From Pseudobdellovibrionaceae bacterium (GTDB lineage: Bacteria > Bdellovibrionota > Bdellovibrionia > Bdellovibrionales > Bdellovibrionaceae): DNA of 64,000 nt. Positions 3,486 through 52,067 of the stretch are shown here, piece by piece; within the stretch, counting starts at the first letter, position 1; every line of letters starts with the position of its first letter. The position numbers were made by a program, and so were the translations under genes. Under the pieces are notes generated by a model. It worked only from the letters and a program-made list of their open reading frames with translations, did not search any database and was not told where the DNA came from. The stretch is from positions 1-64,000 of the forward strand of contig JBIKLL010000003.1 in assembly GCA_044359815.1 (NCBI GenBank), given 5' to 3'.

Positions 3486-3902
3486 AAAACAAATTAGTGG
3501 TTTTAGAATTTTAAAAAATATGTCTGTGTTTTTACACCTTTTGAATACCCGCTAACGGCCGCAAGCTCATCTCTCGTATTGCGTAAAAGCAAAGATAATT
3601 TGTTTTTACTGTTTTTAGACACATGCAGCGAGCGTGCGGGGCATATCTGGTGTTGAGTCATTTAGACTAATCAGTTTTAAGATAATTTATTAATCATAAA
3701 AGTGATTAGTCTAAATGACTCAATACGAGAGATGAGCCCGCGGCCGTTAGCGAGTGTCTAAAAATAGTGAAAAAAATTATCTTTGCATTTACGCATCACG
3801 AGATATGCGGCGGTAAATTAACCGTCGCGCTCGCTGGATGTATTCAAAAGGTGTAAAAACACAGACATATTTTTTAAAATTCTAAAACCACTGATTTGTT
3901 TT
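3486..3902. repeat. Type I nested palindromic element, copy 2 (complete, 417 bp)
   Basis: Outer arms 3486-3548/3840-3902 (62 of 63 complementary); middle arms 3579-3622/3754-3796; inner hairpin 3653-3723; GC modules A' 3549-3578, B' 3623-3652, A 3724-3753, B 3797-3839. Confidence 0.97.
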
Positions 3903-18003: not shown

Positions 18004-18738
18004 ATGTTGAAGGTTTTAGTATTTTTATTTTTAACCGAAATCGCAGTCGCCAGGATTGATTTTCCCACCGGCATGAACTCCAAAGACCGCATCGCGGTCA
18101 TGCAAATTTTAGGATTTGGTTCAGCAACAAAATTATTAAGCAACCCGTATCCGTTGGGCGGCTATCATGGGATTGAGATTGGTCTTTCGACCGACGTGAT
18201 CTCAACAGAACAAATCGGCAATTTAGGAAACAAGGCTCGCTCCCGTGATCAATTAAGCTTTACCAGTGTCACTGTCGGCAAGGGACTGTACAGCGATGTG
18301 GATGTGTTTTTTCAGTTCACTCCATTTATTGAATCAGATAGCGTTTCGGCCATAGGCGGGCAGATAAGATATGGTTTTTTCGAAGCCAGTTATTTACCCA
18401 TTCACTTGAGTATTGTTCTGCATGGTAACAGCGTTAATTTTCAGAATCAGTATGTGGCAGATAATTTTGGCAGTGATTTTGTTGGTGGCATCAGTGTTCA
18501 AGACGTAACCCTGTACGCAGGGTTTGGGTTTGCAACTACTTATGGAAGATTTTTGGGGATGGGGGGCACGGATTCGCAGGGGAATCTGCTGACCAATCAG
18601 GAAACAGTCAAGGAATCCTATTTTAGCATCCACCGTCTGGCAGGGATTCAGGTCAATTTGGGCGAAATGTTTTTATCATTCCAAATAGACCGCTATGTCG
18701 AGGCCACCTTCGCCGCCAAGCTAGGCTACCGTTTTTAA
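18004..18738 (+). CDS. Putative outer-membrane beta-barrel protein
   Basis: Signal peptide, alternating beta pattern, C-terminal LGYRF. Confidence 0.7.
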   Translation: MLKVLVFLFLTEIAVARIDFPTGMNSKDRIAVMQILGFGSATKLLSNPYPLGGYHGIEIGLSTDVISTEQIGNLGNKARSRDQLSFTSVTVGKGLYSDVDVFFQFTPFIESDSVSAIGGQIRYGFFEASYLPIHLSIVLHGNSVNFQNQYVADNFGSDFVGGISVQDVTLYAGFGFATTYGRFLGMGGTDSQGNLLTNQETVKESYFSIHRLAGIQVNLGEMFLSFQIDRYVEATFAAKLGYRF

Positions 18739-18955
18739 GCAAAACCTAGCCTTTTCTAAAAATAAATTTTCCAGAAAAAGTTTATAAAATATAGATATAA
18801 TTTTGTTTAAAATGGTTCTCCGCGGAGCCATGGATGGCGGGGGCTTGTCCCGAGTGGCTGAGGCTGGAGGCCGTAACCATTTTAAATTAAATTATATCTA
18901 TATTTTATAAACTTTTTCTGGAAAATTTATTTTTAGAAAAGGCTAGGTTTTGCTT
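18737..18955. repeat. Type II palindromic element (81 bp arms, 57 nt structured core)
   Basis: Arms 18737-18817/18875-18955 are complementary at 79 of 81 positions; GC-rich core 18818-18874. Confidence 0.97.
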
Positions 18956-19407
18956 TTGTTGATGATGTTGGTGGTGGAGCGGCCTTGATGAAATTGCAAG
19001 GATTTAACAATTCCGCCGTTGCTGATTACAAAATCGCTTCCAATTATTTGATCGGGCTTCCAGTCGCCACCTTTGACTAAAACATTTGGTGACACCTGTT
19101 TGATCAGATTCAGAGGATTGTCTTCGCTAAATATACAGACGGCGTCCACGCAGCCCAGTGACGCCAAGATTTCTGCGCGGTCGTTTTCATTCTGAATAGG
19201 TCGATTGGGGCCTTTTAGGGTTTTCACGCTGCTGTCGCTGTTGATACCGACAAATAAAAAATCACCCAGCTTTTTGGCTTCTTGCAAATATCTGATATGT
19301 CCCACATGCAACAAATCAAAACAGCCATTGGTAAAAACAATTTTTTTAGTTTTTTTGATTGGATCCAGTTTTTGTTTGATTTCATTAAAGCTAAAAACTG
19401 AACCCAC
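18943..19407 (-). CDS. rfaE2: D-glycero-beta-D-manno-heptose 1-phosphate adenylyltransferase
   Basis: FTNGCFDLLHVGH, NSDSSV, VKGGDW, STT. Confidence 0.93.
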   Translation of the reverse strand: MGSVFSFNEIKQKLDPIKKTKKIVFTNGCFDLLHVGHIRYLQEAKKLGDFLFVGINSDSSVKTLKGPNRPIQNENDRAEILASLGCVDAVCIFSEDNPLNLIKQVSPNVLVKGGDWKPDQIIGSDFVISNGGIVKSLQFHQGRSTTNIINKSKT

Positions 19408-28576: not shown

Positions 28577-29146
28577 ATGCAAAAGCAACTGAATCCAGAA
28601 CTATTTAAAACGGAAATCCGGACCGAAAATAAAAACTTAGGTTTTGAACAACCATCACACATCCCTGTGATCAAACAAGTTTCAATAACAGGTCAGTCAG
28701 GACAGAGCTTTCAAAGCGACGAAAGGTATGCAAGACCTGAATCTAAGTTCACAGAAATGATCAAAGAAAATTCGCAATTAAAATTGCAGGTTCAAGACTT
28801 AACCACCAAGTTTATGGAATATCAGAAAATCAACCAAACCCGCTTTGAGCGCTACAATCAGGCGATCACACAGTTGCAAGAAAACATGCAGGTTTTGGTT
28901 GGTGATTGGACTCAAAAAATCGGTAATTTGCAAAATAAATTAACCGACAGAAAAAATATGGACACCAAAATGCAAGAGACCATCGACCGTCACAATACAA
29001 TCCTGAAAGCGTTTGAATTGCGGTTGGGTCAGATGCAAAAAATCATCACTGAAAAAGACGAACAGATTAAAGAATTTCAATCCCTGTTGAACGATACAAA
29101 AATGGAATTGTCTCGAATCAAACGATTTGATGGCGGCACCTACTGA
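28577..29146 (+). CDS. Coiled-coil hypothetical protein
   Basis: 189 aa; GGAG RBS; heptad pattern. Confidence 0.75.
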   Translation: MQKQLNPELFKTEIRTENKNLGFEQPSHIPVIKQVSITGQSGQSFQSDERYARPESKFTEMIKENSQLKLQVQDLTTKFMEYQKINQTRFERYNQAITQLQENMQVLVGDWTQKIGNLQNKLTDRKNMDTKMQETIDRHNTILKAFELRLGQMQKIITEKDEQIKEFQSLLNDTKMELSRIKRFDGGTY

Positions 29147-29261: not shown

Positions 29262-29360
29262 AATTTGAATTTCAAAAATCCAAATATTTGATTTTTCTTT
29301 TAAAGACCACAGCTCGTGCTTCTCTGCTCGGGCAGGCCCCCGCCATCCGGGCTCCGCAGT
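29262..29360 (-). repeat. Type II element, one-armed copy
   Basis: Reverse complement of 29305-29360 (ACTGCGGAGCCCGGATGGCGGGGGCCTGCCCGAGCAGAGAAGCACGAGCTGTGGTC) closely matches 34772-34828; only one AT-rich arm is present. Confidence 0.9.
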
Positions 29361-34668: not shown

Positions 34669-34706
34669 AGAGCTATCAGCTACTGCTAATTATAAATTTG
34701 GAACCG

Positions 34707-34888
34707 CCCCATCTTTGTTACTGAAAATAAAATTTAGAATTTTAAATATTTGTTTTTACATAAAAAGACCCTCTGCGGAGCCTGGACGGCGGGGGCACGG
34801 CCCGAGCAGAGAAGCAGGAGCTGTGGTCTTTTTATGTAAAAACAAATATTTAAAATTCTAAATTTTATTTTCAGTAACGAAGATGGGG
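34707..34888. repeat. Type II palindromic element (64 bp arms, 54 nt structured core)
   Basis: Arms 34707-34770/34825-34888 are complementary at 63 of 64; core 34771-34824; extra outer pairing 34683-34705/34896-34917. Confidence 0.97.
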
Positions 34889-34906
34889 GTTAGTTGGTTC
34901 AAATTT

Positions 34907-35533
34907 CTAATTAGCAGGTGCAAATTCGACAGTGGTTGAGCCCGCAGGCCCAGTCAAAGTCAGTTTGGATTCACTGGCTTCTGCCATAGAAGTTGGCAAA
35001 GAAAAAGTTATTTTATACGGAGTGCTCCAACGATTAAAATGCGGATACAGGGCGACCAGTTCGGCCGGCAGTGTTTTTAGTTTTTCTGCTTTGCCTTCGT
35101 AGCGCTTACCAGACACATCCAAAAATATTTTCCATAAAGTTTTTGGTTTATTTAAATCGTCTAATTTTCGATCCGGAACATAGAAGCTAAAAAAAATCGT
35201 CGTCAGATTGGAAAGCTCAGATTCCCTTTTGGATTTTTCGGAACTGTACTGCAGCTCACTCCATTGATAGATCCTGGCATATTGATCGACCTGCAGTCGG
35301 GAAACCTTGGTATTCATCAGTGTCGCATAAAATTCAAAAGCCGCATGAAAGCCATCATAAATCTGTTTTCTTTCGGTAGAGTCTTTTACTGCCGAAAAAT
35401 ATTCGCTTTCAGATGTCAAAGTCAGGTTGGGATTGTTGTGAGTGGTTTGGCATCCTGACAATGCAAGAACTAAAATTCCAAAAAGCAGTGTTTTATTTAA
35501 AATAGATTTTTGATGTCTGTTGAATCTGAACAT
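34907..35533 (-). CDS. Hypothetical lipoprotein
   Basis: Lipobox LSG|C. Confidence 0.78.
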   Translation of the reverse strand: MFRFNRHQKSILNKTLLFGILVLALSGCQTTHNNPNLTLTSESEYFSAVKDSTERKQIYDGFHAAFEFYATLMNTKVSRLQVDQYARIYQWSELQYSSEKSKRESELSNLTTIFFSFYVPDRKLDDLNKPKTLWKIFLDVSGKRYEGKAEKLKTLPAELVALYPHFNRWSTPYKITFSLPTSMAEASESKLTLTGPAGSTTVEFAPAN

Positions 35534-51647: not shown

Positions 51648-52067
51648 CCCCTTTTTCTTCGGCAACTTTGGATTTTAAAAATTATTTCTATGATTTTACA
51701 CCTTGAGAATACATTTGCGAGCGCGACATTTAATTTACCGCCGCATATCTGGTGATGCGTAAATGCAAAGATAATTTTTTTCACTATTTTTAGACACTCG
51801 CTAACGGCCGCGGGCTCATCTCTCGTATTGAGTCATTTAGACTAATCACTTTTACGATTAATAAATTATCTTAAAACTGATTAGTCTAAATGACTCAACA
51901 CCAGATATGCCCCGCACGCTCGCTGCATGTGTCTAAAAACAGTAAAAACAAATTACCTATGCATTTACGCAATACGAGAGATGAGCCCGCGGCCGTTAGC
52001 AAGTATTCTCAAGATGTAAAATCATAGAAATAATTTTTAAAATTCAAAGTAACTGCAGAAAAAGGGG
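51648..52067. repeat. Type I nested palindromic element, copy 3 (complete, inverted relative to copy 2)
   Basis: 51713-52002 is near-identical to the reverse complement of 3549-3839; outer arms 51648-51712/52003-52067. Confidence 0.97.

Follow-up and report, generated by a model that had tools for sequence, protein, structure and literature searches.

In the genome of a Pseudobdellovibrionaceae bacterium, a stretch of 64,000 nucleotides (contig C49:1-64000, called the window here) holds three copies of a small repeat, two of which carry long self-complementary arms on either side of a shared core. The arms differ between copies, yet they are near-perfect within each copy. How can a repeat have a stem that is both private and perfect, and what is the core for? 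The assembly (G000) comprises 2.95 Mb in 125 contigs with 41% G+C and is 91% complete; f1 denotes its family and g9 one genus within f1. Considering the evidence below, we lean towards the reading that the element is a CsrA-type RNA module seated on palindromes that are kept and lengthened in place.

One fold between arms of differing sequence

Copy 1 lies on the plus strand. Its 57-nt core, of type B (18818..18874), consists of helix P1 (18818-18823 with 18854-18860), hairpin P2 (GCC at 18827-18829 with GGC at 18836-18838, loop AUGGAU at 18830-18835), hairpin P3 (18841-18843 with 18849-18851) and hairpin P4 (GGC at 18862-18864 with GCC at 18870-18872, loop UGGAG). A left arm (18737..18817) and a right arm (18875..18955), both of 81 nt and 98% complementary to each other, enclose it. 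The outer 28 nt of the left arm are private to the locus, and its outermost 13-15 nt repeat, in inverted orientation, the 3' end of the downstream gene, a cytidylyltransferase-like open reading frame (ORF) at 18943-19407 on the minus strand, whose final (K)SKT codons and TAG stop lie in the right arm (18943..18955).

Copy 2, also on the plus strand, has a type A core (34771..34824) with CUCUGC/GCAGAG as P1, UGGAC as the P2 loop, GGGC/GCCC as P3 and AGC-AGGA-GCU as P4; it scores 97.3 bits with our covariance model R1. Its ungapped arms (34707-34770 and 34825-34888) are 64 nt each, 98% complementary and separated by 54 nt. Once one indel is allowed, the pair reaches 34683-34917, which gives a left arm of 88 nt (34683..34770, outer 33 nt private) and a right arm of 93 nt (34825..34917), the outer 11 nt of which overlap the stop and last codons of a minus-strand ORF (34907-35533). 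Copy 3, on the minus strand, has been cut short on the 5' side, where it lacks the left arm and some of the 5' strand of P1; what remains is the core at 29309..29359 and a solitary right arm of 51 nt (29308-29258) that fits the arm consensus of the family. It starts 10 nt past the TAG (29372-29370) of the upstream minus-strand gene. The initial annotation had assigned one P1-P4 fold to the three cores and near-perfect self-complementarity to the arms of copies 1 and 2, and our reading of the three copies agrees on both counts.

The window represents a much larger family. The exact core pattern matched 36 times in the genome, compared with 0 matches for the reversed control, and an nhmmer profile search gave 64 copies, 62 of them near full length. 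Three core types were recognised, namely type A (n=24; CUCUGC...GCAGAG, P4 AGC-AGGA-GCU), type B (n=24; CUCCGC...GYGG, P4 often GGC-UGGAG-GCC) and type C (n=14), which has an insert of about 30 nt in place of P4 and in 8 cases also lacks P2. Arms of 42-102 nt with about 85-100% complementarity flank 48 of the 52 copies defined by regular expression.

Folding with RNAalifold of types A and B (24 + 24 sequences) returned a basal stem with P1, P2, P3 and P4, and with all 62 sequences of mixed type the consensus was reduced to the basal stem, P3 and a GCGG/CYGU helix. Among 45 short-type cores, 97.6% of cells were paired and 15 of 26 pairs had changed on both sides; none of 500 shuffles did as well, and slid controls paired 33-52%. 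Compensated pairs were found in every core helix (P1, C-G in 24 and U-A in 21; P4, A-U in 35 and G-C in 9; P2, one U-A; P3, three plus one A-U). When 41 matches from relatives and metagenomes were aligned, 92.6% of cells were paired and 20 of 26 pairs had changed on both sides, with P2, P4 and the inner part of P1 paired throughout (100%, 2-4 pair types) and P3 as a variable hairpin. The compensatory changes in P1 and P4 that had been noted from three copies thus stand, and covariation persists with more copies here and in relatives. These results support the core as the conserved, structure-constrained unit of the element. The proposal that it is the functional recognition or catalytic unit holds in its first part, since the core is structure-constrained and common to other genera while the stems differ by locus, but not in its catalytic part: no Rfam model of a self-cleaving ribozyme (hammerhead, twister, pistol, hatchet and others) matched around copies 1 and 2 up to E = 10.

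The core as a candidate RNA module

The pairing exceptions carry information on the strand, because G-U is a wobble on the strand with the GGA loops and A-C corresponds to a wobble on the other strand. In the cores plus 10 bp of G000, G-U outnumbered A-C by 17:2, and family-wide the ratio was 16:2. Along the arms of G000 it fell from 20:2 over the innermost 20 nt to 4:4 over nt 21-40 and 18:23 farther out; with all arms pooled it was 42:29 (p = 0.15). The excess of G-U is confined to the core and inner stem, which argues for an RNA module set within a palindrome that exists at the level of DNA. The counts point to an RNA read from the GGA strand for the core plus about 20 bp, and the outer arms, which have no strand bias, appear to behave as DNA palindromes. 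In several type B copies (for example C18, C33:10540, C46 and C47), a U-G wobble recurs at one stem position 12-15 nt from the core, with ..TTTTATTT.. in the left arm and ..TTTTACTT.. as the reading of the right arm; either the wobble has been inherited and is tolerated in RNA, or mutations are frequent at this position.

A locus shared by eight g9 species provides a comparison. Its 36-bp stem is paired in 263 of 288 cells, at least 2 pair types occur at 30 of 36 positions, and G-U exceeds A-C by 9:1. Of the 8 species, 5-6 have recurrent A-G and G-A mismatches at positions 5 and 7 of the stem; such mismatches were not seen in the copies of G000.

Of the copies in G000, 44 of 45 have GGA in the P2 loop and 33 of 45 have it in the P4 loop; among relatives the numbers are 29 of 31 and 26 of 31. 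The P2 loop is exactly AUGGAU in 7 of the 45 copies and YGGAY-like in most. Such loops recall TwoAYGGAY, Rfam family RF01731 (Weinberg et al. 2010, PMC2864571). At the gathering threshold, Rfam gave 0 matches in the window, but below the RF01731 cut-off of 43 bits copy 2 reached 40.8, copy 1 reached 28.6, eight type B copies reached 20.7-34.5 and the best match in five relatives reached 40.2 bits. The match is full-length, and P2 (GCC-AUGGAU-GGC) aligns to the first AYGGAY hairpin of RF01731, CAUGGAUG; one distant member carries GCC-AGGAU-GGC and GCC-AUGGAU-GGC. Matches to plant and animal microRNA precursors, which appeared when Rfam was searched at an E-value threshold, were rejected as chance, as such models match any long AT-rich hairpin; apart from these, no Rfam family other than TwoAYGGAY was found for the element, either here or in the five relatives.

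The likeness extends beyond the loops. In TwoAYGGAY, as here, hairpins with (A)YGGAY-type loops stand on a common, often elongated basal stem, and many dispersed copies occur in numbers that are very uneven among genomes. According to the main text of a preprint (bioRxiv 10.64898/2026.09.22.753630), the family is multi-copy, has an elongated basal stem in some lineages and forms divergent doublets, with a median distance of 249 bp; four g9 genomes (G085, G101, G062 and G123) likewise hold divergent pairs, at distances of 246-332 bp. The available part of PMC4333381 describes tandem G-A pairs in a stem of TwoAYGGAY, to which the A-G/G-A mismatches in some members here may correspond, and proposes binding by Csr/Rsm proteins, a proposal repeated in the main text of bioRxiv 10.64898/2026.09.22.753630. 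That main text contains 0 mentions of a Bdellovibrio-like lineage. The present element differs in that P1 encloses the first GGA hairpin together with the extra variable hairpin P3, so that the GGA hairpins are not adjacent; in that the second loop is mostly AGGA(N) rather than AYGGAY; in its best score of 40.8 against 43 bits; and in its arms, which are perfect palindromes of up to about 100 nt that include host sequence. By its sequence and architecture, the core is best regarded as a divergent lineage variant of a TwoAYGGAY-type GGA-hairpin element and not as a new class. The initial annotation had called it a 'Type II' element, and its standing as a new class cannot be kept given this sub-threshold yet architecturally clear relative; the annotation had also named identity with an Rfam motif as grounds for refutation, and on this the outcome is divided, as the relationship to RF01731 is clear in architecture but the scores stay below the cut-off.

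G000 encodes CsrA (C116:45828-45986, 90.5 bits), and some 35 nt separate the two GGA loops in copy 1 as in copy 2, so that a pair of GGA hairpins and a CsrA gene were found together. A CsrA dimer can bridge a loop spacing of about 35 nt. We propose that an RNA module of about 75-100 nt, made of the P1-P4 core and roughly the inner 20 bp of the stem, would be read from the strand with GGA in the P2 and P4 loops and would belong to the TwoAYGGAY-like group. Its most likely job would be the binding of a CsrA dimer, either in the 3' tails of genes or as a released small RNA, and the long double-stranded stalk would act as a terminator or processing stem.

The genomic placement of the copies bears on this proposal. 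By crude ORF calls (at least 90 aa), which weaken the neighbour assignments, convergent genes flank 25 copies and tandem genes 18, divergent genes flank none, and 5 copies have no called neighbour. Many copies abut or overlap stop codons, often within 0-30 nt, and in 10 of the 25 convergent cases no more than 30 nt remain on each side. This pattern would also suit an element that is purely structural, a bidirectional terminator or a hairpin that stabilises or destabilises mRNA, with incidental GGA loops and no protein partner. The total lack of copies between divergent genes (0 of 43), the closeness to stop codons, the long stems and the random orientation in tandem contexts (core sense in 9, antisense in 9) are all in keeping with such an element, as are the precedents of ERIC, Correia and YPAL (PMC2229807, in the part available). 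A plain terminator, however, needs no 55-nt core conserved across genera with two GGA loops, the wobble asymmetry of the inner stem misfits a hairpin that is equal in both orientations, and selection against insertion in promoters would lead just as readily to placement at gene ends. We therefore judge a purely structural role unlikely.

Several observations count against a CsrA-binding RNA module. P4 lacks GGA in 12 of 45 copies, the RF01731 cut-off was never reached in G000 or in the five relatives, and the second hairpin of that family aligns poorly. For copies 1 and 2, the single-sequence minimum free energy (MFE) folds of the GGA strand contain core pairings other than P1-P4; the MFE fold of the opposite strand of copy 2 is the mirror image of P1-P4. 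Paralogues and kin in the covariation counts are not independent, and the 41-match alignment (A3) was fitted to the model and is thus biased toward the structure. With sense and antisense at 9:9, half of the tandem copies would have to carry a promoter of their own for an RNA from a single strand. In RNA-seq of cultured relatives, contigs of 3-25 kb span the entire 901-nt test locus and are uninformative on a discrete RNA. One RNA-seq run has a contig break and a change in depth at 1191-1217 beside an element, which is only a hint.

Arms possibly copied in place or entered by the element

Over the inner 42 nt, arms are 97.0% identical within a copy and 65.1% between copies (58% when shuffled), and 0 of 1128 copy pairs have arms at least 90% alike. 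This bears out the earlier statement that the arms largely differ between copies, and it indicates that there was no recent burst, yet each copy is near-perfect. Within subfamilies, homology is still recognisable over the inner 45 nt or so. Further out, arms that are private on both sides extend over at least 20 nt in 17 of 48 copies and at least 30 nt in 9 of 48, with a maximum of 88-90 nt. In 11 copies with private arms that were checked, the arm has no other match in the genome, and 7 match their own inverted partner; these elements are therefore not nested in another repeat.

Host codons reach into some arms. The KSKT* end of the cytidylyltransferase-like gene makes up the outer 13 nt of the right arm in copy 1; the C-terminus of this gene is (E/N)KSK(T/S/N) in 5 of 9 other genera, with 14 of 15 nt identical in one of them. 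In the copy at C85:17693-17929, the outer 10 nt are the ..KN* end of a phosphoribosyltransferase (Hpt-like) gene, which is invariant in 14 genera. As these C-termini are conserved, that stretch of arm would be the ancestral host sequence and the opposite arm its inverted copy. In both testable copies, then, the outermost arm appears to be ancestral host coding sequence that was copied across to the other arm. Three other overlaps carry no weight here, as the C-termini of the AlaRS-like gene at C116 and of the neighbour of copy 2 are variable, the latter between genera, and the gene overlapping an arm on C124 has no match in 30 relatives.

We propose that a DNA palindrome surrounds the RNA module and that its near-perfect arms are extended in place. 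One arm would be copied to the other side, and then the neighbouring flank would be copied likewise, probably by template switching within the palindrome or by arm-to-arm conversion at replication, until coding sequence on both sides halts the extension. Copying in place would explain the private arms, the filled gaps between convergent genes and the host codons in the arms. Copies also disappear, through deletion between short direct repeats, and others take their place where they stood. The correction of quasipalindromes by replication template switching is a route from imperfect to perfect inverted repeats (PMC7202029, in the part available), and a similar process, which could also lengthen the arms, would maintain their identity; such correction has been shown for short quasipalindromes of Escherichia coli, and its reach to arms of 40-100 nt or to flanks is our extrapolation. 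The earlier claim that the arms are regenerated or homogenised in each copy is upheld to this extent: they are kept perfect per copy and seem at least partly made in place, given the private outer arms that occur in no other copy and the host codons in 2 of 2 testable cases.

Another explanation concerns the arms only. The private outer arms could be pre-existing host hairpins at whose centre the element inserted, with nothing copied in place, and this could also account for the codons in the arms. Together with the UUUUGUU that follows it, the outer arm of copy 1 would serve the upstream gene as a terminator, and the stop of the cytidylyltransferase-like gene also lies within a small dyad in one other genus. 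YPAL elements, as described in the available part of PMC2229807, target sites of dyad symmetry with target duplications of 3-26 bp. This explanation is weakened by the length of the private self-complementary parts, which at 30-90 nt in 9 of 48 copies go far beyond terminator stems, and by two polymorphic sites at which the core-less genome has only the right-hand copy of the outer arm and no hairpin. In addition, the inverted partner of the Hpt-like gene end occurs in 0 of 14 relatives within 90 nt past the stop. Entry into host hairpins is thus somewhat improbable as the origin of the arms. On the other side, host-codon ancestry is testable in two copies only, and the two 'empty' sites of G000 that keep the outer right arm may be deletions rather than pre-insertion states; both points detract from copying in place.

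YPAL/RU-2, ERIC and Correia/NEMIS are small palindromic repeats co-transcribed with their neighbours (Delihas 2007, PMC2229807, here and below in the part available). Like the present element, they are intergenic at gene ends, form long RNA hairpins and have empty and filled sites among relatives. Variable direct repeats at the junctions and dyad-symmetry targets are features of YPAL, and an effect on mRNA stability via RNase III or RNase E has been proposed for YPAL, ERIC and Correia. These families are conserved along the whole unit or at the ends; in the present element conservation is confined to the centre, and the ends are private.

Distribution, turnover and meaning of the copies

With model R1, the motif was found in 38 of 150 other f1 genomes, in 14 of 41 genera (the genus of the window included) and in 25 of 32 g9 species, at 1-10 matches per positive genome compared with 64 copies in G000. 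In a sample of the whole phylum, 9 of 151 genomes were positive, G000 among them; only three of these lie outside f1, and they show the same design. Everywhere in the relatives the cores stand on a long, near-perfect, locus-specific stem of 24-130 nt. A scan for the exact pattern in 185,579 species genomes gave 21 single matches; the DNA that holds them has 56-80% G+C, and the design of the element is absent from all of them. In metagenome contigs the pattern occurred at 30 loci, 12 of which are real elements (13 copies). When copy 1 and its flanks were compared by BLAST with 40 relatives, the neighbouring gene alone was matched.

The 12 metagenome loci include two pairs at the same site, which leaves 10 sites for comparison with G000. 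The same element was kept at 3 of 10; one of these has arms 98% identical and one a matched stretch 99% identical, within flanks that are about 85-91% alike, and the third has one arm swapped in G000. At another 3 of 10, a different core type or wholly different arms lie between conserved flanks. Three more sites are filled in the relative and core-less in G000, one of them by a plain deletion between AAGG repeats, and 1 of 10 was not comparable. These site-by-site outcomes show that copies have been lost, replaced and reshuffled over time. The core-less palindrome at C27:7120-7260, CTGGCGCCTTTAAAAATGGAAACC...GGTTTACATTTTTAAAGGCGCCAG, has its breakpoints in AAGG repeats and is the deletion remnant of an element that is intact in the metagenome relative L147. 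At C85:28562-28680, the right arm is conserved with L140 while the left arm in G000 has been exchanged for a family-typical arm and the palindrome is lost, which suggests recombination between copies via the conserved core. Direct repeats of 7 nt, and of 12 nt with one mismatch, occur at two filled/empty sites, and either may be deletion microhomology.

Turnover of this kind might also be expected of a DNA mobile element of the REPIN or IS200 type, in which the core would fold in single-stranded DNA as the recognition site of an HUH/Y1 transposase and the hairpin would be an intermediate whose mismatches are repaired before insertion. In its favour are the 64 dispersed copies, the presence, absence and exchange of elements at the same site relative to metagenomes, and the adjacent copies at C105:28762-29117. 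G000 also has eight paralogous HUH/Y1-like genes of about 211 aa and one of 219 aa. G-T is the best-tolerated mismatch in DNA hairpins too. In Pseudomonas, TwoAYGGAY adjoins arrays of repetitive extragenic palindromic (REP) sequences, according to the main text of bioRxiv 10.64898/2026.09.22.753630. The Y1-like genes, however, form units of about 680 nt whose flanks are unrelated. Of the 9 loci, 7 either have no core on their contig or have the closest one at a distance of several kb; the remaining two, both on contig C8, lie about 1 kb and about 12 kb from the nearest core. Relatives of these genes occur in 103 of 150 other f1 genomes, and one genus has them in 26 of 33 genomes with the element found in 0 of 33. 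The Y1-like protein scores 21.5 bits against the NCBIfam RAYT cut-off of 80. Nor does any copy pair have arms at least 90% alike, as a recent burst would leave; the shared g9 locus is RNA-like in its A-G/G-A mismatches and G-U ratio of 9:1; and no IS110-type gene was found in this 91% complete genome. A link to the HUH/Y1 genes was rejected on the grounds of unrelated flanks, distance to cores, distribution and the weak RAYT score, and we consider mobility of this type decidedly unlikely.

REPINs reportedly consist of two inverted REPs, with conserved ends and a variable centre (Bertels and Rainey 2011). The present element shares with REPIN and REP-RAYT systems the dispersed, hairpin-forming intergenic repeats and the HUH/Y1-type genes in the genome; it differs in its conserved centre and variable ends, and the Y1-like genes are neither flanked by it nor co-distributed with it. 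From miniature inverted-repeat transposable elements (MITEs) it differs in having no shared terminal inverted repeats, the outer arms being private over at least 20 nt in 17 of 48 copies. The label 'inside-out MITE' used initially is thus apt for its appearance, but not if it implies transposition with conserved ends, since the termini are not conserved and no transposase gene carrying the arms of the element was found among the Y1-like loci inspected.

The eight Y1-like paralogues (about 203-211 aa, 87-93% identical, with the HUH-like motif NHLHLKV) match Y1_Tnp, RAYT and IS200 models weakly (Pfam 22-25 bits). They lie at C49:93340-93948 (outside the window), C48:48186-48794, C23:210-818, C47:11973-12581, C100:636-1244, C56:3008-3604, C8:23385-23984 and C125:2390-2989. 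Several adjoin microsatellite-like tandem repeats, and in relatives they are often multi-copy per genome. The adjacent elements on C105 form a head-to-tail pair (28762-28948 and 28954-29117, 6 nt apart), and another such pair occurs in a metagenome relative (L152:391-467 and 507-581, about 40 nt apart); unlike these, the g9 pairs are divergent, with 246-332 bp between members. The window also contains, at 3486-3902 and 51648-52067, a further repeat family unrelated to the first, the 'Type I' of the initial annotation, which occurs at C49:3-188, 127508-127838 and 129478-129719 as well. Its unit of about 417 bp has arms of 63-65 nt with nested inverted repeats inside, and it gives 219 BLAST segments across the genome, often at contig ends. 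A cyanobacterial origin was considered and rejected, since the sequence GCGATCGC has 24 occurrences, compared with about 19 expected.

TwoAYGGAY-type elements are widespread and numerous, and their function is still untested. The present lineage offers a clean comparative case, with one g9 locus in eight species on the one hand and an expansion to 64 copies in G000 on the other. In Bdellovibrio-like predators, CsrA is reported to be functional and implicated in predation, and very little is known of post-transcriptional regulation (PMC13443453, in the part available); our literature search on Bdellovibrio with Csr/Rsm and small RNAs found no paper describing an antagonist RNA. Tentatively, and with more doubt than attaches to the RNA module on maintained palindromes as such, we put forward that the core nucleates a self-repairing palindrome that grows by cross-copying its flank, coding sequence included, so that the stem of each copy is private and perfect. 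This would be a mode of repeat evolution undescribed for TwoAYGGAY, REP or MITE, and the 64 copies could form a distributed CsrA sponge in mRNA tails. As far as the searched literature goes (for the preprint, its main text), the self-maintaining, self-extending palindrome is the part for which no precedent was found. The arms pose the question of how long perfect palindromes survive, remain perfect and gain host codons, and arm growth, if true, would create inverted duplications at the 3' ends of genes and reshape intergenic regions.

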